From: Verrucomicrobiota bacterium
Lineage (GTDB): Bacteria; Verrucomicrobiota; Verrucomicrobiia; Limisphaerales; JAXMHQ01
Assembly: GCA_046346665.1 (NCBI GenBank)
Contig: JAXMHQ010000027.1
Location: 2,299-66,298 of the forward strand
Length of the DNA stretch: 64,000 nucleotides
Reading direction: 5' to 3'
The notes below the pieces were generated by a model. The model was not told the origin of the DNA. It did not search any database and saw nothing but the letters and a program-made list of their open reading frames with translations. Below are positions 26,824-44,558 of this stretch, one piece after another (the stretch's first letter is position 1; each line of letters opens with the position of its first letter). The position numbers and the translations under genes were made by a program.

Positions 26824-27032
26824 TGAAATCGTTCTTCAAACCCAACCTCGCCCCCGCCGGCCGCCGCGCCCGCGCCACAACCGCCGTCCTTCTCCTCCTG
26901 GCCGCAGCCGGCATGGCCTTCGTCTTCATCCCCGCCGCCATCGCCCTCGCGATCTCCGCCTGCTTCGTCGCCTTCGAAGCCGCCCGCGGCTGGTGCGTCC
27001 TTCGCGCCTGCGGCATCAAGACGCGCTTGTGA
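26823..27032 (+). CDS. DUF2892 (YgaP-like) small membrane protein
   Basis: MKSFFKPNL...GWCVLRACGIKTRL. The ATG overlaps the carH stop (TGATG). Confidence 0.7.
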   Translation: MKSFFKPNLAPAGRRARATTAVLLLLAAAGMAFVFIPAAIALAISACFVAFEAARGWCVLRACGIKTRL

Positions 27033-33514: not shown

Positions 33515-33565
33515 GCCCGCGGCTGGTGCGTCCTTCGCGCCTGCGGAATAAAAACAAAGCTCTGA
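33515..33565 (+). pseudogene. Orphan 3' fragment of a DUF2892 gene (encodes ARGWCVLRACGIKTKL-stop)
   Basis: The first 32 bp are identical to 26982-27013, inside the intact DUF2892 gene. The following codons still encode GIKT(K/R)L-stop but with different nucleotides. No upstream coding part is present. Confidence 0.7.
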
Positions 33566-36520: not shown

Positions 36521-37414
36521 GTGAACCCCACCCCGCTCATCATCAACGCCGCCATCACCGGCATGGTGCCCACACACAAGGACAATCCGCACGTCCCGCT
36601 CTCGCCCGCCGAGATCGTCGCGGATGCCCGGCGCTGCCGCGACGCCGGCGCCAGCATCCTGCACGTCCACGCCCGCGACGATGCCGGCGCCCCGACGTGC
36701 CACCGCGAAATCTTCGCCGAAATCATCGGCGGCATCCGGTCCGCCTGCCCCGGCTTGCTCATCTCGGGAACCACCAGCGGCCGCTGCCACAAGGAATTCG
36801 AACAGCGCTCCCAGGTCCTCGAACTCGACGGCGATCTCCGGCCCGATTTCGCTTCGCTCACGCTCGGCTCGATGAATTTTCCCACGCAAGCCTCCGTGAA
36901 CGAGCCCCGCATGATCCAGGACCTGGCCAGGCGCATGCGCCAGCGCGGGATCGTGCCCGAACTCGAACTGTTCGACCTCGGCATGACCGATTACGCGAAA
37001 TACCTCGTCGACCGCCAGATCCTCGAGCCGCCATTTTACGCCAATATATTGTTAGGCTCACTCGGCACCCTCGCGGCCACGCCGCAGCACCTGGCACTCA
37101 TGGTGGACGGATTGCCCGAGGGCACCACCTGGTCGGCCGCGGGCATCGGCCGATACCAATGGCCCATGAACCAGCTCGCGATCGCCATGGGCGGCCACGT
37201 GCGCGTGGGCCTGGAGGATAATCTCTGGATGGACACCGCCCGGACCGATCCGGCATCGAACCCGCGGCTGGTGGAGCGCCTTGTGAAACTGGCCGGACAG
37301 ATGGGCCGCCCCATCGCCTCGCCCGAGACCGCCCGCGACATCATCGGCCTGCGCCCGCGCACGCCGCACCCCGAGTCCGTCTCCGCCAGCCCGCCTACCC
37401 CCGATTCGCGTTGA
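36521..37414 (+). CDS. BKACE-family enzyme (3-keto-5-aminohexanoate cleavage enzyme-like, DUF849)
   Basis: GTG start. LIINAAITGMVP, ILHVHARD and HVRVGLEDN are signature motifs of the DUF849/BKACE TIM-barrel zinc enzymes. Confidence 0.75.
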   Translation: MNPTPLIINAAITGMVPTHKDNPHVPLSPAEIVADARRCRDAGASILHVHARDDAGAPTCHREIFAEIIGGIRSACPGLLISGTTSGRCHKEFEQRSQVLELDGDLRPDFASLTLGSMNFPTQASVNEPRMIQDLARRMRQRGIVPELELFDLGMTDYAKYLVDRQILEPPFYANILLGSLGTLAATPQHLALMVDGLPEGTTWSAAGIGRYQWPMNQLAIAMGGHVRVGLEDNLWMDTARTDPASNPRLVERLVKLAGQMGRPIASPETARDIIGLRPRTPHPESVSASPPTPDSR

Positions 37415-37496
37415 TCCATGGTTGAGTGCTGGCTTTCTCGAAACCGCCTCTTGCAGTCGGGGCGCGCCTCTGCTGCAGATTGGCCATTCCTGGAGC

Positions 37497-37561
37497 GCGG
37501 GCGTGGTTCAGTGGTAGATTGCGGGCTTCCCAAGCCTGGGATGAGGATTCGATTCCCTTCA
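37497..37561 (+). pseudogene. Truncated, degenerate copy of tRNA-Gly(CCC): 5' 65 nt only, no 3' acceptor strand
   Basis: It aligns to the intact tRNA at 44485-44558 with 4 substitutions. One of them breaks the T-stem (GAGGA versus GAGGG). The sequence continues as AAAATGTGCC instead of CCCGCTCCA. Confidence 0.8.
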
Positions 37562-37655
37562 AAATGTGCCACGAGTTCAAAGAAGGCCAGATCCGTCCGG
37601 TGCAGACCGAAGAACAGCGGCGTCCAAAGTCCGTTGAGCGCGATGAACAAGTTCT

Positions 37656-38531
37656 TCATGCGGCGAGTTCCTGACTCGGCCGGGATGCTCGCGATTCGGC
37701 GCTGCTCCATTTGCGGCGCAGGCCCGTCAATCGCGTCTGCATCTCCTTCATCTCTGCTTCGAGCGCCTTGAGTTCGTCCTCCAGCGTGGCCGAACCGGTT
37801 TCGAGCTCGCGCTGCGCGCGGTCGCGCTCGGCGATCTCGGCGTGCATTTCGGACATGCTGTTCATGATGATGCCGATGAAAAGGTTCAGGATGATCATGG
37901 TGCCGAGCACGATGAACGTGACGAAATAAATCGCGACCTTGATGGCCGACACATGCGTAACCTGCGCGGCGAACAGGTCCGACCAGTTATCCAGCGTCAC
38001 CAATCGGAACAGCGACAGAAACGCCGCCGGGAGCGAGCCGAAGTTCTTCGGGTCGTGCGCGCCGAAAAGGTGAATCCCCGCCACCGCATAGATGTAGAAC
38101 AACAGCGCCAACAACAGGCTCACGTAACCCATCGCCGACAAACTCTTCAGCAGCGCGCCGACGAGGAGTTGCAATTTCGGCAATGCGCTCACCAGCCGCA
38201 GCAATCGCAATCCCCGCGCCAATCGCAGCACCGCCGCGAACGGTCCGCCCACGGGCAGCAGGCAGATCACGACGATCAGGAAGTCGAACACGTTCCAGCC
38301 ATCGGCGAAGTAGCGCCAAGGCATGCGGCCATGCGCCGCCATCTTCAGCAGCGCCTCGACGATAAAGATGCCAAGAATAAATTTGTCCAGCCCGTGCAGC
38401 CACGCGCCATGCTGCACCATGACCGCCGGGCTGGTTTCCAGCCCGGCCACCGCGCCCGCCAGCACGATCACCGCCACGATGGCGTGGTGAAACGGCTTGG
38501 ACTCGACCAGATATCTGATGCGATGGGTCAT
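37656..38531 (-). CDS. Bacterial voltage-gated cation channel (BacNav/NaChBac family) with a C-terminal coiled coil
   Basis: Six TM segments. S4 has Arg at every third position (RLARGLRLLRLV). The pore motif is FRLVTLDNWSD. The coiled-coil tail includes EDELKALEAEMKEMQ. Confidence 0.8.
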   Translation of the reverse strand: MTHRIRYLVESKPFHHAIVAVIVLAGAVAGLETSPAVMVQHGAWLHGLDKFILGIFIVEALLKMAAHGRMPWRYFADGWNVFDFLIVVICLLPVGGPFAAVLRLARGLRLLRLVSALPKLQLLVGALLKSLSAMGYVSLLLALLFYIYAVAGIHLFGAHDPKNFGSLPAAFLSLFRLVTLDNWSDLFAAQVTHVSAIKVAIYFVTFIVLGTMIILNLFIGIIMNSMSEMHAEIAERDRAQRELETGSATLEDELKALEAEMKEMQTRLTGLRRKWSSAESRASRPSQELAA

Positions 38532-39835
38532 GGCTTCTCCGCTTCCGGTGTCACAAGAACTTTGTCCACGCGCTCGCCGTCCATGTCCAGCACTTCAAAG
38601 CGCCAGCCGCCAGTGGAAAAACATTTTCCCTCAGCCGCCGCACCGCTGAGCCGCGCACTGACATACGCGCCCAGTTTTTGCTTTGGAGCAGCTTCGCGGG
38701 CGACAGACGCTTCCACTTCCAATTGCTCCCAGATCTTCGCCACCTCGAACGCCCCGTCCACGAGCCACGAGCCGTCGTCGCGCCGGCGCGCCTCGGGGCG
38801 CAGCCGCTCCTCAAGCGAGGGCAGTTCGCCGACGATGGCTTCGAGCACGTCCACCAGCGTGATCACGCCGAGGAAGTTGTTCCGTTTGTCCACCACAATG
38901 CCGATGTGTTGGCCGCTCGCCTTGAACGTTTCGAGCAAGGACGCAACCGACCGGTTGGCCGTCACGAATAGCGGAGCGACCATGAGATCAACGACATTCG
39001 GCACGACGCCCACCGCGACGTTCGCGTAAACAGCCTTGACCGAAATCACACCCACGATGCGGTTGCGGTTGCTGTCATACACCGGAAAGTGGTTGTGCCC
39101 GGAGACCACGATCTTGTGCCATAGCGTCTCGGGGTTCTCATCGCGCCGGATGAAAATCACCTTGCCGCGCGGCGTCATGATGTCCGTCACGGGCCGCTGG
39201 TCGAACGCGAGAACCGATTCCACCATGCGCGGCTCGGCAGGATGGAAGACACCCGTGTGCGAGCCTTCCTGCATCAGCGATTTCACCTCGTCCTCAGACA
39301 CGGTCGCTGGGGCTTTCGGCTTGACGCGCAACACGAACAACACCGCGTCGGTCACAACACCCAGCATCCAGATGACCGGCCGGGCAAGCCGGCTCAAAAG
39401 GTCGAGCGGACGCGCCATCAAGCCGGCGATGCGTTCCGGATTCGAAAGCGCCAGTCGTTTCGGGACGAGTTCGCCGATGACGAGCGACAGAAAAGTCAAC
39501 GTCACCACCACCACACCCATACCGATGGCTTCGGCGTAAGGCGAGAGCGCGGGCCACTCAGCAAGCATCTTCGCAATCTCGCGGGCCAGGGTCGCGCCCC
39601 CGAACGCGCCAGCCAACAATCCCACAAGAGTGATGCCCACCTGAACGGAGGGCAGGAAGCGATTGGGCTCTTCAACCAGCTTGAGTGCCGCCCGCGCCCC
39701 GCGATCACCGCTGTCAGCCAGCATCCGCAACCGGCTCTTGCGCGATGAAACCATCGCCATCTCGGTCATCGCAAACACGCCATTCGCGAGGAAGAGCAAC
39801 AAGATGATCACTAATTCAAAACTGATCGCATTCAT
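38528..39835 (-). CDS. HlyC/CorC (CNNM) family transporter: DUF21, CBS pair and CorC_HlyC domains
   Basis: 435 aa with the typical architecture. ATGA overlap with the channel gene start. Confidence 0.85.
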   Translation of the reverse strand: MNAISFELVIILLLFLANGVFAMTEMAMVSSRKSRLRMLADSGDRGARAALKLVEEPNRFLPSVQVGITLVGLLAGAFGGATLAREIAKMLAEWPALSPYAEAIGMGVVVVTLTFLSLVIGELVPKRLALSNPERIAGLMARPLDLLSRLARPVIWMLGVVTDAVLFVLRVKPKAPATVSEDEVKSLMQEGSHTGVFHPAEPRMVESVLAFDQRPVTDIMTPRGKVIFIRRDENPETLWHKIVVSGHNHFPVYDSNRNRIVGVISVKAVYANVAVGVVPNVVDLMVAPLFVTANRSVASLLETFKASGQHIGIVVDKRNNFLGVITLVDVLEAIVGELPSLEERLRPEARRRDDGSWLVDGAFEVAKIWEQLEVEASVAREAAPKQKLGAYVSARLSGAAAEGKCFSTGGWRFEVLDMDGERVDKVLVTPEAEKP

Positions 39836-39852
39836 GATTCAGGTAAGGCGCG

Positions 39853-40797
39853 TCACTCGTGCGCGCCGACGCATATGACTTTCGCCGTCTTTGGCTTCAC
39901 CAACGACCACACCACGCTCGTCGTGAGAATCAGGACGATCACGCCCAACGACACCAGCGTGTCAATCTTCCACGCCGTGTGCGCCAGAATCATCTTCACA
40001 CCCACGAACGACAGCACCACGCCCAGGCCGATCTTCAGGTAATGGAATTTGTCCATCACGCCCGCCAGTGCGAAGTAGAGCGAGCGCAGGCCAAGGATCG
40101 CGAACACGTTCGACGTATAGACGATAAACGGATCCTTCGTGACCGCGAAGATCGCCGGGATGGAATCCACCGCGAAGATCAGGTCGGCGAATTCCACGAG
40201 CAACAGCACCACGAACAGCGGCGTGGCCAGGCGCACGCCGTTCTCACGCACGAAGAACTTATCCCCGCGGTATTCTGGCGTCACCGGCATCAGCTTCTTG
40301 AAAAGCCGCACGACAGGATTCCGCTCGGGATGAATTTCCTCTTCGCGCTTCACGATCATCTTGATGCCGGTGAGGATCAGGAACGCGCCGAACACGTAGA
40401 TGATCCAGGCAAACTTCGCGATGAGCGCCGCACCCGCCGCGATCATGACAGCCCGCATGGCCAGCGCGCCAAGGATGCCCCAGAACAGCACCTTGTGCTG
40501 ATACTTCGGCGGCACGGCGAAATAGGAGAACAACAGCGCGAACACGAACACGTTGTCCACGCTCAGCGATTTCTCGATAACGTAACCCGTGAAGAACTCC
40601 AGCGCCGCCTGCGACCCCGCGTAATGCCACAGGCCTGCGTTGAACAGGAGTGCCAGCACCACCCACACGCCCGTCCACGTGAGCGATTCGCGCAGCGAGA
40701 CGACGTGTGTCTTGCGATGGAACACGCCCAGGTCCAGCGCCAGCATCGCCAGCACGAAGGCGTTGAATCCGATCCAGAGCCAAAAATGTTCATTCAT
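39853..40797 (-). CDS. TerC-family integral membrane protein
   Basis: 314 aa. The motifs LSVDNVFVF and DLIFAVDSIPAIFA are typical of TerC/Alx. Confidence 0.85.
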   Translation of the reverse strand: MNEHFWLWIGFNAFVLAMLALDLGVFHRKTHVVSLRESLTWTGVWVVLALLFNAGLWHYAGSQAALEFFTGYVIEKSLSVDNVFVFALLFSYFAVPPKYQHKVLFWGILGALAMRAVMIAAGAALIAKFAWIIYVFGAFLILTGIKMIVKREEEIHPERNPVVRLFKKLMPVTPEYRGDKFFVRENGVRLATPLFVVLLLVEFADLIFAVDSIPAIFAVTKDPFIVYTSNVFAILGLRSLYFALAGVMDKFHYLKIGLGVVLSFVGVKMILAHTAWKIDTLVSLGVIVLILTTSVVWSLVKPKTAKVICVGAHE

Positions 40798-41071
40798 AGT
40801 TTCTGTTTAACGCGGACAAGGTAGTTGCATCCGATGGAAGAACTAGTCGGTTGAGTTTGCAAACAGATGCAGGTCTGTTCGGCAAAAGGGTTCTGTAGCG
40901 TTCGCGCAGCCAGTTCAGCCAGCGCCGGGCCCAAAGAAACTCGACGGCCAAAATCGCCAGCGCGGCGGGAATCACCACGATGGCCGGGCCCGGCAGAACG
41001 AGCATCGCCAACCCAGCAATGAGCAGGGCGCCGCCCAAGATCGCCACCAGACATTTTCGCAGGAGAATCAT
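40790..41071 (-). CDS. PGPGW-domain small membrane protein
   Basis: LLIAGLAMLVLPGPAIVVIP followed by a second TM segment. It overlaps the terC-like start by 8 nt. Confidence 0.6.
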   Translation of the reverse strand: MILLRKCLVAILGGALLIAGLAMLVLPGPAIVVIPAALAILAVEFLWARRWLNWLRERYRTLLPNRPASVCKLNRLVLPSDATTLSALNRNYE

Positions 41072-41374
41072 GCTGTGTTTACAAATTTGATCGGCCTTGA
41101 GGGAGACGCCCGGTCTCCATTGCGAGCATCGCGATGACGAACACGTTGCCCCGATCCAAAGCCGAATGTGTTAAGTCGCATTGTTTTGTTTCACGCCACA
41201 AAACTAGCCGCGTCCGCCGGGGCCTCTAATCGATAATTCAGAAGCCATTGTTAGGATTTGCCGAAGAGTGGGCGGAGGAGGCTGAAGACCGCCATCTCAG
41301 GACCCGGGTGATCTGGTGGCCGTAAAAGAACCCTCGATCGCGTTGCGGGCCGACGCTTGCCTGACCGAATATTC

Positions 41375-42592
41375 CTATCGGGCGGGGCGGGTGGAGGCGC
41401 GGCGGACGCGCCTGACGCGTTGCACGAACCGGTCCTTGCGCAAGTGCCACACCTGCAACTTGAGCGCCGCCAACTCCGAATCGAAACGCGCAAACAACCA
41501 GTAGGCGAAACGCTGCTTGAGCCGTTGCCACCATGTGCGGCCATGCTTCAGCGCTTCCCGCGTGATTGGAGTCGCCCGCTGGGCCAGGTCGGCATCGAAC
41601 TGTTGGCGTGCGGTGACCGCCAGGGTGGCGTCCTGAATGCGCAACATGATCTCAAAGTTGATGCGTAAGCTGCGCGGATCGAGGTTCGAGGAACCGACGA
41701 ACACGATGTCATCCACCACGATCAGTTTCGCGTGAAGCACTTGGGGCTGGTATTCCCAAATTTCGATGCCCTGGTTCAACAGGCGCCGGTAGAGCGAACG
41801 GGACGCGCATTGCATCAACGGCACATCGCTCTTGCCGGCCAGCAGCACGCGCACCCGGGCCCCGCGGGCCACCGCTTGGGCAAGATGATGCCTCATGCGG
41901 TGGGAGGGCAGAAAATACGCCGAGGTGATCGCCACATCTTTCGCGCGGACCAGATCCTGCCGCAACGCCTCACGCAACGGATTGCGCCCCAGGCCCGGTT
42001 TGATGAACAGTACCTGAACCCCGGCTCCGCACTCCACTCGCACCCGTTGACTGAAACCGCCCGTTGGGAACTTCCAGCGTTGTTCGACCGCTCGCTCCCA
42101 TTGCCGGTCGAACTCGGCCTCCAGCACTCCGGCCACCTCTCCCTGCACGCTCACCCCGCCATCGCGCCACCCCGTCGTGATGCCGTCGCCACAGTATTCC
42201 GGTGCGATATTGCATCCGCCTACGAACGCCATGCGCCCGTCCATGATCAGTAGTTTCCTGTGGTCCCGGAAGGAAAACGAGCGCAAGCGCAGCTCGTTGA
42301 ACCACCGCATCGCCCCACCCGACTCCACCAGGCCGCCAAAATAATCACGCGGCAACTGATACGAGCCTATTCCGTCCACCAGCAACCGCACGCGCACTCC
42401 GCGCCGCGCCGCCGCCGTCAACGCCTCTCGGAACTGCCGGCCAATGTCCGAATCGCGGAAGATAAAGGTCTCCATGACCACGGACGATTGTGCCGCTGCG
42501 ATGGCGGCCAACTTCGCTTCCAGCAGGCTCCGCCCGGTTCCATGCCATGTGAAACAGTGGTCCTCGGCCATAGGGGCACGAGGGTGGCGCAA
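41375..42592 (-). CDS. Phospholipase D-family protein (cardiolipin synthase ClsB-like)
   Basis: Two HKD motifs are present (HRKLLIMDG and LHAKLIVVDD). 405 aa. Confidence 0.8.
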   Translation of the reverse strand: MRHPRAPMAEDHCFTWHGTGRSLLEAKLAAIAAAQSSVVMETFIFRDSDIGRQFREALTAAARRGVRVRLLVDGIGSYQLPRDYFGGLVESGGAMRWFNELRLRSFSFRDHRKLLIMDGRMAFVGGCNIAPEYCGDGITTGWRDGGVSVQGEVAGVLEAEFDRQWERAVEQRWKFPTGGFSQRVRVECGAGVQVLFIKPGLGRNPLREALRQDLVRAKDVAITSAYFLPSHRMRHHLAQAVARGARVRVLLAGKSDVPLMQCASRSLYRRLLNQGIEIWEYQPQVLHAKLIVVDDIVFVGSSNLDPRSLRINFEIMLRIQDATLAVTARQQFDADLAQRATPITREALKHGRTWWQRLKQRFAYWLFARFDSELAALKLQVWHLRKDRFVQRVRRVRRASTRPAR

Positions 42593-42786
42593 AACAGGCG
42601 GCGCGACAACCGGATTGAGGAGGAGAGGGCCGGCGTGAGGGCTAATTCAATCGAGGAGATGCCGAGCTCCGACCGTGATTGCGATTCAATCCTGATTCAT
42701 GTGCATCCGTGTCCATTCGTGATTGCCTCGGCGTCTCTGTGTCTCCGCGGTGATCCATTTGGTGCACTTCGCGGTTGGCCGCAAAG

Positions 42787-43035
42787 TCATTCGTTCAATC
42801 CGCCGCGCTGCCACGGCGTAACGAATTGGAACGGCGCGCCGGCCCGGGCGTAGAGGTCACGGGCGACCGCAGCCGAACCGCGGCGGGCGGCGCGAAGTTC
42901 GCGTCGCGTCGCGCGCACGGCCGGACCGAGGACCTGTTTCGAGACGTTCACCGCCCGCCCCGGCATGGACGCGGCCAGGGACAGGGCGTCGGCCGGAATG
43001 TCGGCCAGCGACTTCAGGATGAGTTTCGGTTTCAT
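42787..43035 (-). CDS. Hypothetical small protein (82 aa)
   Basis: It is the only plausible ORF in the gap and starts 45 nt after the upstream gene's stop. No recognisable family and no clear SD sequence. Confidence 0.25.
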   Translation of the reverse strand: MKPKLILKSLADIPADALSLAASMPGRAVNVSKQVLGPAVRATRRELRAARRGSAAVARDLYARAGAPFQFVTPWQRGGLNE

Positions 43036-43080
43036 GACTTGTTGTTTGTTGATGGTTGATCGTTGTTCGTTGATTGATTT

Positions 43081-43419
43081 TCACCCGCCACGGCGGGACT
43101 TGAGGTTGCCCTTGAGCCGCTGCAATCGCTTGGTGGCGCGGGCGGTGATCTGCTCGCGCAGTTGCGTCATAGCCTTGGCAAATGCGGCGCGCAACGTGTG
43201 GTCGCGGCTCTCGGCGAACACGTCCGGCCCGGGCGTCACCAGATGCACGTGGACTTGAAACGCAGGGCTGGCGTTTTCCAGCCGGACGAGCCGGACATTG
43301 GCTTCGTCAATCTGCCGCGTTGCGCCGAGCGCACGGAGTTGTTTGTCCACCCAGGCATCCATCCTGTCGAGCGGGCGGATGTTGAGGTGTTGCACATTCA
43401 TTCTCATGGTCGTCGTCAT
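43081..43419 (-). CDS. HPF/RaiA-family ribosome-associated protein (short form)
   Basis: MRMNVQHLNIRPLDRMDAWVDKQL...FQVHVHL resembles the sigma-54 modulation/HPF fold. The start is among the ATGs at 43419, 43407 and 43401. Confidence 0.5.
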   Translation of the reverse strand: MTTTMRMNVQHLNIRPLDRMDAWVDKQLRALGATRQIDEANVRLVRLENASPAFQVHVHLVTPGPDVFAESRDHTLRAAFAKAMTQLREQITARATKRLQRLKGNLKSRRGG

Positions 43420-43444
43420 CGTATTTGTGTTTGATGGTTTGGGT

Positions 43445-44137
43445 TTATCCCCGCGACCGGTTGCCGCCCGCCAGCAAGGGCAGCAAGTGCCAGAGGAAAT
43501 AAGCGAGCGAGGTGATGAACGCCGCCACGTATGTCCACGCCGCCGCATCGAGAACCTTCCTCACGCCAGCGGCTTCTTCGCCAGGCGCGATGAATCCGAA
43601 GTCGGCCAACACCGCCTTGGCGCGACGGGAAGCGTCGAACTCCACCGGCAGCGTGACAAGGTTGAACAGCATGATCACGCCCCACGCCACCGCCATCAGC
43701 ATCGCGCCGGTCAGCGGCTGGATCAGACCCGTGAACAGGCCGAGCGCCGGCAGCAACATCACGACATGGTTCGCGTAGGTCGTAATGCCCACCGCCGCCA
43801 TGCGCCAATGCAACGGCTTGTACGCCAGCGCATGCTGGATCGCGTGGCCGGCCTCGTGCGCGGCAACGCCGAGCGCCGCAGGCGTGCGCCCGTGGAAGTT
43901 GTCCGGCGAAAGCACGAGCCGTTTGTGCAACGGATCGTAGTGGTCGCCGAGCATGCCTTCACCCTCGGTGATCTCGACGTCGCAGATGCGTTTGCGCCGG
44001 AGGATTTCCGCCGCCACTTCCGCGCCGGTAAATCCGGAGCGCACCACGCCCTGGTTGTAGCGGGCATAGACCGACTTCACGCGCCATGCCGCCCAGAGCG
44101 AGAGCGCCATTGTGCCGATGAACAGTATCCAAATCAT
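43445..44137 (-). CDS. Membrane zinc metallopeptidase (Zn_peptidase_2 family)
   Basis: HEAGHAIQH motif; N-terminal TM segment; 230 aa, typical of this family. Confidence 0.8.
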   Translation of the reverse strand: MIWILFIGTMALSLWAAWRVKSVYARYNQGVVRSGFTGAEVAAEILRRKRICDVEITEGEGMLGDHYDPLHKRLVLSPDNFHGRTPAALGVAAHEAGHAIQHALAYKPLHWRMAAVGITTYANHVVMLLPALGLFTGLIQPLTGAMLMAVAWGVIMLFNLVTLPVEFDASRRAKAVLADFGFIAPGEEAAGVRKVLDAAAWTYVAAFITSLAYFLWHLLPLLAGGNRSRG

Positions 44138-44484
44138 AACGTGCCTTTCTCTTTTCGTTTCCGCACCGCCGAGAGGCTCTCCTTGACCTCCAGCCCCCGG
44201 GCGGTGTTCACGCGTGACAATAGGCCCGGCGGCGCGTGCCGACTAATATGCGGTTCCGAATGGACGCTTCGGTTAATCCGAAGCAAACTGTCGGCGCATG
44301 GAATGGCTGAATTATCACCAAACCGGCCTGCTGCATCAAAACGCGCTGGTAAGATCCAGTGAACCCCTTGGTGTTCTTCGTGTCCTTCGTGGTGAACCGG
44401 CCTTCGAAGTAAAGTCCGGCTTTGCGGTGAAACCCCCCTTGCAGTCCGGGCCCGCTTCTGCTACAGATTAGCCATTCCTGGAGC

Positions 44485-44558
44485 GCGGGTGTGGTTCAGT
44501 GGTAGAATGCGGGCTTCCCAAGCCTGAGATGAGGGTTCGATTCCCTTCACCCGCTCCA
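44485..44558 (+). tRNA. tRNA-Gly (anticodon CCC)
   Basis: Acceptor GCGGGTG/CACCCGC; anticodon stem CGGGC/GCCTG with loop TTCCCAA; T arm GAGGG-TTCGATT-CCCTT; encoded CCA. Confidence 0.9.

Follow-up and report, generated by a model that had tools for sequence, protein, structure and literature searches.

A broken-ended piece of a conserved gene neighbourhood between a truncated and an intact copy of tRNA-Gly(CCC) in a Verrucomicrobiota genome

How does a single-strand block of genes come to lie between an intact tRNA gene and a promoter-bearing fragment of that same gene? Such a locus is found at positions 37430-44558 of a 64,000-nucleotide stretch (hereafter the window) of a Verrucomicrobiota genome (GenBank assembly GCA_046346665.1, contig JAXMHQ010000027.1), and an earlier note made from the sequence of the window had likened it to the integration of an island targeted to a tRNA gene. 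The genome is a metagenome-assembled genome (MAG) of 4.5 Mb, 97% complete and distributed over 70 contigs, and the window belongs to its 76.9-kb contig C20; contigs, comparison genomes and their loci are denoted below by C, G and L, respectively. The locus combines broken genes at both ends of the block, a clear polarity of decay between the two tRNA copies, conserved synteny of the same genes elsewhere in the order and an absence of recombinase genes. We propose, with moderate confidence, that an old, non-site-specific event inserted or translocated a broken-ended fragment into tRNA-Gly(CCC) at nucleotide (nt) 65 and left approximately 130 bp duplicated.

The two copies of the direct repeat form an ungapped 120-nt pair (37442-37561 and 44430-44549) in which both a repeat search and direct counting find 108 of 120 positions identical (90%), and alignment carries the similarity back to approximately 37431 and 44419 once two small indels are allowed. 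The local alignment scores 87 and none of 200 shuffles exceeded 13, which puts the match far outside the reach of chance; the repeat described in the earlier note is thus real, although its right-hand copy ends at 44549 and not at 44551. Each copy comprises about 66 nt of upstream (promoter) region followed by nt 1-65 of tRNA-Gly(CCC), ending at the junction of the T-stem and the acceptor stem (37561 and 44549), and the repeat starts lie 6988 bp apart. Searches of the 4.5-Mb genome recover these two copies only, plus the unrelated tRNA-Gly(TCC), and tRNA-Gly(CCC) is present as a single gene among 47 tRNA genes. Furthermore, the copies differ at 4 of 65 positions in the tRNA part and at 8 of 55 upstream, a pattern that one duplication followed by drift would produce if the left copy was free to change and the right constrained only in the tRNA and the promoter boxes; the event is hence old.

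Of these copies only the right-hand one is complete, in agreement with the earlier reading of the sequence: it continues into the intact tRNA-Gly(CCC) gene (44485-44558, plus strand), which is the only tRNA that ARAGORN calls at the two sites, scores 69.2 bits against Rfam, is the genome's sole gene for this isoacceptor and has the same sequence as the corresponding tRNA of G010. The region upstream of it (44419-44484, plus strand) carries TTGCAG-N17-TACAGA preceded by TGC and would be the working promoter of the gene, an assignment based on the conservation of a TTGC-N17-TGnTA pattern upstream of tRNA-Gly(CCC) in relatives; 21 were compared, and most share only that pattern with our genome. 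A consensus promoter scan called a tRNA promoter in neither copy.

The left copy is an inert, decaying tRNA pseudogene with a mutated promoter. Its tRNA part (37497-37561, plus strand) stops at nt 65 and lacks the 3′ acceptor strand and the CCA, ARAGORN calls no tRNA there, and the Rfam match falls to 31.9 bits over model positions 7-64. In the promoter relic (37431-37496, plus strand), TTGCAG is retained at 37451-37456 and the -10 region reads TGCTGCAGA, with a G at position 37475 in place of the A found in the right copy and in most relatives. The tRNA parts differ at nt 6, 23, 43 and 51. Compared with the tRNA-Gly(CCC) genes of 21 relatives, among which three of these four sites are invariant, the right copy has the consensus base each time, and all four left-copy substitutions are accordingly derived. 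The loss of an essential part is thus combined with substitutions at conserved positions, as defines a tRNA pseudogene, and in its truncation, its lineage-specific changes at otherwise invariant positions and its mutated promoter the left copy resembles the tRNA pseudogenes and fragments left by rearrangements, from which it shows no difference of substance.

Between the repeats, every gene of the block (37656-44137) lies on the minus strand, and Pfam assignments bear out the gene list of the earlier note: a NaV-type channel (Ion_trans; 37656-38531), a CNNM/CBS/CorC protein (38528-39835), TerC (39853-40797), a PGPGW protein (40790-41071), a PLD-type cardiolipin synthase (PLDc_2, hereafter Cls; 41375-42592), HPF (S30AE; 43081 to about 43420) and a Zn peptidase (Zn_peptidase_2; 43445-44137). 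To these we add an 82-aa open reading frame (ORF) at 42787-43035, also on the minus strand, which has no Pfam hit and is kept beside HPF in relatives. Neither the block nor the 76.9-kb contig encodes a tyrosine recombinase by Pfam, and a genome-wide PF00589 search returned five hits, all on contigs other than C20, consistent with the earlier observation that no integrase remains. The comparison of composition with the flanks that the earlier note had suggested likewise yields near-native values rather than an outlier: the GC content of the block, 61.2%, lies at the 17th percentile of 1209 same-size windows and its tetranucleotide distance at the 92nd, and the sugar cluster of the left flank departs further still (96th percentile).

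Where does this block come from? We searched 120 genomes of the same order at the DNA level and followed the search with tblastn on the fetched loci, which identified colinear homologues of the block in G078, G052, G043, G025, G074, G107, G075, G104 and metagenome contigs. The underlying arrangement, a LysR gene divergent from Zn-peptidase-HPF-82aa-TerC-CorC-NaV-PGPGW-TspO, is found in many families (eight or more others) as well as in metagenome contigs. Individual genomes keep different portions of it: TerC-CorC-NaV-PGPGW with HPF and Cls adjoining in G078; Zn-peptidase-HPF-TerC-CorC in G052 and G043; TerC-NaV in G025, G074, G107 and G007; and HPF followed at some distance by NaV-PGPGW-TspO in G104. 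LysR stands divergently some 110-160 bp upstream of the Zn-peptidase gene in the metagenome contigs with the closest Zn-peptidases (90-93% identical to that of the block), G043, G078, G052, G074 and G025, and is divergent from HPF instead in G075 and G104. No tRNA gene or island integrase stands beside the neighbourhood at any of the relatives' loci that we examined. Among the variants compared with window positions 37656-44320 (loci L048-L059 and L064-L068), CorC and TspO are not always present and Cls sometimes is, and truncated Zn-peptidase copies occur in G074. At L042 (G020:C73, 8197-10171), a cardiolipin synthase 80.6% identical to that of the block is divergent from an adjoining TspO gene that is intact; the RpoB of G020 is only 86% identical to ours.

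The genome also carries a full-length LysR gene on another contig (C6, 68036-68953), 78% identical to the metagenome LysR and divergent from a second HPF gene that is 46% identical to the HPF of the block and 64% identical to that of G075, where LysR and HPF have the same layout. This separate LysR/HPF2 locus makes the block a second, partial copy of the neighbourhood and not a recent copy of the C6 locus.

Comparison with the intact neighbourhoods shows that both ends of the block lie inside genes. On the right, the divergent intergenic region between the Zn-peptidase and LysR genes (44138-44297), aligned with our own contig C6, L068, G043 and G078, contains a perfect palindrome, TTCGGTTAATCCGAA, at 44268-44282, which is likely a LysR operator, and the region upstream of the block's LysR is 81% identical over 97 nt to the 5′ region of the C6 LysR gene. 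The intergenic region as a whole is strongly conserved across families. Directly after it, ATGGAATGGCTGAATTATCACCA encodes MEWLNYH-, so that only the first 7-8 codons of LysR (MEWLNYHQ; 44298-44320, plus strand) remain: homology with all full-length LysR genes stops there, and the BLAST matches of G078, G043, G025 and G052 all end at 44320. Since the operator region of LysR has been retained, the block probably remains under trans control by the full-length regulator encoded on C6. The LysR stump is followed by 98 nt of orphan DNA (44321-44418), which reaches the right repeat and has no match in the rest of the genome, in the 120 genomes of the order at the protein level, or in Pfam in any frame. 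A faint resemblance of one spacer frame to the N-terminus of a P4-type integrase was rejected, as Pfam did not support it. A sigma-70-like match (TTGATG-17-GATAAT; 44311-44339, minus strand) straddles the join between stump and spacer and faces the Zn-peptidase operon; the join may have created a hybrid promoter here, or the match may be due to chance.

On the left, the earlier note had pointed to a small ORF coupled to the channel gene through ATGA and apparently cut at the junction. This ORF is real, and a truncated gene is indeed what it holds. It extends over 37570-37659 (minus strand), its ATG overlaps the NaV stop codon, and it consists of the first eight codons of a PGPGW gene (MKNLFIAL; 37659-37636) fused in frame to some 22 mid-gene codons of TspO, NGLWTPLFFGLHRTDLAFFELV (37635-37570), corresponding approximately to codons 82-105 and to positions 78-104 of the Pfam TspO_MBR profile. 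G104 has the order NaV-PGPGW-TspO, with a PGPGW gene starting MKKVFIAL and a TspO gene containing LALNASWTPLFFGLRRPDLAFAEIV; the match of MKNLFIAL and NGLWTPLFFGLHRTDLAFFELV to these two genes indicates that an in-frame deletion fused PGPGW to TspO. The genome contains no intact TspO gene. Between the TspO relic and tRNA nt 65 lie eight filler bases, AAATGTGC (37562-37569), which, by comparison with the intact TspO genes of G104 and G020, match neither junction partner. The left join therefore runs from tRNA nt 65 through AAATGTGC into TspO at codon ~105 with no extended homology, and the right join from LysR codon 8 through 98 nt of orphan DNA into the repeat, both as expected of illegitimate recombination.

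How does this anatomy compare with that of islands integrated in tRNA genes? As the earlier note had recognised, a DNA segment lies between an intact tRNA gene (44485-44558) and a same-orientation cognate fragment (37497-37561). Its remark that duplication of the 5′ half is atypical captures a minority type and is overstated all the same, as this is a known configuration: in the Islander collection, 159 of 3919 islands (~4%) have a 5′ fragment, and a 5′ fragment upstream of the tRNA gene (tDNA) is accepted (PMC4383910). The same source lists the T-stem/acceptor junction among three attachment (att) crossover subsites, and recombination at the 5′-distal part of tRNA genes, or 'reversed target orientation', is documented (PMC6563490, citing Zhao & Williams 2002). 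By the Islander tests, our locus has a full tDNA and a cognate end fragment on one replicon and in the same orientation (both plus strand), with the 5′ fragment 6.9 kb upstream, and its 6988 bp fall within the 2-200 kb range; it has no integrase, as assessed by Pfam for the block, by the five PF00589 hits, none of which is on C20, and by the frames of the spacer. Judged by the general concept of a tDNA island, the block shows neither deviant composition nor mobile-type cargo. It thus resembles 5′-fragment islands in its intact tRNA gene with an upstream cognate 5′ fragment across 6.9 kb, in a duplicated part that includes the promoter and would suffice to rebuild a working gene, and in a fragment that ends at the T-stem/acceptor junction. 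It differs from them in lacking an integrase, mobility genes and non-coding ends resembling att arms, in a cargo that is a truncated piece of a conserved chromosomal neighbourhood, and in a repeat of 120-130 bp at 90% identity where a short near-exact core is the rule. That the block is a recognisable tRNA-targeted mobile island is consequently not supported: there are no mobility genes, the composition is unremarkable, the cargo is a conserved chromosomal neighbourhood and the ends are broken genes joined without homology.

Canonical island signatures are available for comparison in the same genome. The tRNA-Lys(CTT) gene (C21:40042-40117) has two 3′ fragments approximately 33 kb downstream (C21:73489-73537 and 73581-73614; 49 and 34 nt, 97-98% identical), with a tyrosine recombinase (PF00589) hit at 71970-72482, about 1.0 kb from them; tRNA-Pro(GGG) on C2, with a recombinase hit beside it, has a 26-nt 3′ fragment on contig C3; and tRNA-Pro(CGG) on C26 is followed after 21.7 kb by a 3′ fragment of 23 nt, with no recombinase hit on that contig. 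Taken together, these 3′ fragments measure 23-49 nt and are 97-100% identical to their tRNAs. Among the relatives, tRNA-Gly(CCC) itself is accompanied by 3′ fragments in G007 (L026, G007:C55, 345-372 and 4755-4828; 28 nt, 100% identical, 4.4 kb downstream) and in G093 (L099, G093:C64, 10011-10084 and 11397-11416; 20 nt, 100% identical, 1.3 kb downstream), which are small canonical insertion scars. The window locus is the only 5′-type case among all of these, and it differs from the canonical island signatures of its own genome in every respect.

Illegitimate and homology-facilitated illegitimate recombination of linear DNA (HFIR; PMC3240628 and references there) offers another parallel: the insert is bounded by interrupted genes, its homology-free joins hold filler or orphan bases, and the process can do without a dedicated recombinase. 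Classical HFIR nevertheless has a one-sided homologous anchor and usually deletes recipient DNA, whereas here 130 bp are duplicated; the 130-bp repeat could serve as the anchor, and no relative has a tRNA gene beside the source neighbourhood. The expected outcome of Campbell-type insertion-duplication matches as well, as the direct repeats would be the shared segment, with one copy complete and one truncated; the circular donor that it calls for, in which the promoter and tRNA nt 1-65 would adjoin a mid-TspO sequence, is hypothetical, and none was found.

We therefore favour, as the probable history of the locus, an insertion or translocation that did not depend on a site-specific enzyme. In this scenario, a fragment of approximately 6.76 kb would have been cut from the conserved neighbourhood, with breaks in LysR codon 8 and at TspO codon ~105, and joined on one side to tRNA nt 65 through the eight filler bases and on the other, through the 98-nt orphan DNA, to a point just upstream of the tRNA promoter, so that the promoter and tRNA nt 1-65 (~130 bp) would remain on both sides of the insert. 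The downstream copy would have kept the 3′ end and stayed functional, and the upstream copy would have lost its function and drifted (four changes in 65 nt, and A to G in the -10 region); the fusion of the PGPGW start to the middle of TspO by internal deletion could have come later or have been there already. We infer that the joins were made by illegitimate recombination. Candidate routes include replication template switching, a single event of which would account for the filler, the 98 nt of orphan DNA and a second copying of the 130 bp; single-crossover (Campbell-type) integration of a circularised fragment at the 130-bp homology; and end joining at staggered breaks. Several observations weigh against this account. 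No gene for Ku, the protein of non-homologous end joining, was found in the 97%-complete genome, and simple end joining does not usually duplicate as much as 130 bp of its target. The end of the repeat coincides exactly with an att subsite listed by Islander (PMC4383910), which fits a site-specific event, and the layout, with a promoter-bearing 5′ fragment upstream and in the same orientation, is that expected of an integrase island of the 5′ type. In addition, no empty site or pre-insertion state was found, so that the choice between an incoming block and displaced flanks is made from parsimony only, and the junctions are known from the MAG assembly alone.

These points lead to the competing possibility of a decayed island of the 5′ type, in which a tyrosine integrase would have used the element's own promoter and tRNA nt 1-65 as attP, with crossover at the T-stem/acceptor junction. 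Such an origin is unlikely, and so is the history that it would entail, with the native promoter and 5′ part displaced to the left and later deletions removing the integrase and the att arms to leave the stump, the spacer and the relic. It passes the orientation, configuration and end-fragment filters of Islander and has precedents in the 159 of 3919 islands and in the documented 5′-distal recombination mentioned above; the repeat ends at a listed crossover subsite and includes the promoter, which an element of this kind must supply, and tRNA-Gly(CCC) is a canonical (3′) integration site in G007 and G093. Against this, neither the spacer nor the block holds an integrase or a remnant of one in any frame, a colinear chromosomal piece with truncated terminal genes makes up the cargo, no 5′ fragment of tRNA-Gly(CCC) was seen in 25 relatives, and in no relative does the source neighbourhood lie beside a tRNA gene or an island integrase; the account also calls for two or more additional deletions, one of them ending exactly at the att core. 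A bolder version, in which the block is the remnant of a 5′-type element that had no integrase, or lost it, and that ferried an ion-homeostasis and stress operon between Verrucomicrobiota lineages, is very unlikely, and we are just as doubtful that Zn-peptidase, HPF, TerC, CorC, NaV and TspO were the operon so ferried; were it true, an element of this kind would explain the patchy distribution of the operon among close relatives.

A purely local history, in which tRNA-Gly and its promoter were duplicated and one copy was destroyed by rearrangements that brought a native block alongside, strikes us as unlikely. The near-native composition speaks for it, as does the presence of block genes in the clade-mates G078 and G104, which makes vertical descent with losses possible and which gene trees do not reject, and the upstream region has diverged roughly twice as much (8/55) as the tRNA part (4/65), as one duplication plus drift predicts. 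It requires several independent events, however; the 98-nt spacer is no copy of the sequence downstream of the tRNA and hence no remnant of a tandem unit; the separate full-length LysR/HPF2 locus on C6 is of a different type (HPF 46% identical), leaving the block as a second and partial copy; and five of the nearest relatives, with RpoB 92-94% identical, are without NaV, LysR and the orthologous Zn-peptidase. An assembly artefact, in the form of a chimeric join of two strains or contigs at shared tRNA sequence, might be suspected in a 70-contig MAG, the more so as contigs of several related MAGs break inside tRNA-Gly(CCC), and is nonetheless extremely improbable: the copies differ at 12 of 120 positions and would neither collapse nor be mis-joined, the TspO junction of the left copy shares no sequence with the right copy, and the left copy bears changes of the pseudogene type.

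Whether the fragment that we take to have been inserted came from outside can be considered against the phylogeny of the order. By RpoB, the genome falls in a supported clade with G093, G011, G070, G078, G060 and G104. NaV and LysR were not found in the same-clade genomes G093, G011, G070 and G060 or in G092 of the sister clade (RpoB 92-94% identical), and the Zn-peptidase orthologue is absent from all five, four of which have only a 43-47% identical paralogue and G092 no hit. The clade-mates G078 and G104 do carry block genes, and more distant genomes often have the closer sequences: for TerC, identity is 90% with G052 and 87% with G078, and for Cls it is 81% with G020 and 66% with G078. Trees of TerC, Zn-peptidase and NaV, compared with that of RpoB, are star-like and unresolved and reject no origin. 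Both transfer within the order and vertical descent with losses are possible histories for the block, and the fragment would derive either from another lineage or from a second locus that this genome has since lost.

The flanks offer little synteny. The 20 kb surrounding tRNA-Gly(CCC) were compared in 25 genomes of the order, those closest by RpoB among them, and contained no syntenic C20 gene on either side; a TerC gene near the tRNA in G010 was considered as a syntenic gene and rejected, being 58% identical and of a paralogue type. Closer relatives were absent from the collections searched: of 199,900 species representatives no other falls in the family of our genome, the best homologues of flank genes among 5.8 billion clusters reach 75% (BKACE) and 58% (MCP), and a 25-mer shared by the two repeat copies gave 0 hits in metagenomes. 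On the left, the repeat is preceded by the BKACE gene (36521-37414, plus strand; Pfam PF05853, 1.8e-93), the last of a GT-DegT-acetyltransferase-BKACE sugar cluster, whose stop codon lies 16 nt before the repeat. The four-gene cluster is kept in contigs with a 72-73% identical BKACE, one contig at 68% being without the aminotransferase, and the genes downstream of it differ from contig to contig. In two metagenome loci with a 72% identical BKACE (L039 and L040), tRNA-Gly(CCC) lies 3.6 kb downstream of the sugar cluster but is oppositely oriented; old linkage or coincidence may account for this. Three related MAGs have contigs that break off within tRNA-Gly(CCC), at approximately nt 56 (L104, G026:C171; L105, G005:C222; L103, G011:C253), and others end at or just after this gene; these ends are assembly forks and suggest variable DNA beside tRNA-Gly(CCC) in several lineages. 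Finally, an exact 32-bp repeat (26982-27013 and 33515-33546) surrounds a blaI-blaR segment 4 kb to the left of the locus, a second segment near it that is bracketed by a duplicated gene end.

The direct importance of the locus is small, as it represents an ordinary kind of genomic scar, if a well-resolved one. It indicates that a 5′ tRNA fragment paired with an intact tRNA gene can arise, or at least persist, without an integrase, and it thereby counsels caution in finding islands by tDNA fragments alone. A by-product of the analysis is maybe more useful: the neighbourhood from which the block derives, with its conserved palindromic operator, is a candidate co-regulated module, and may serve as an ion and membrane stress module in Verrucomicrobiota.

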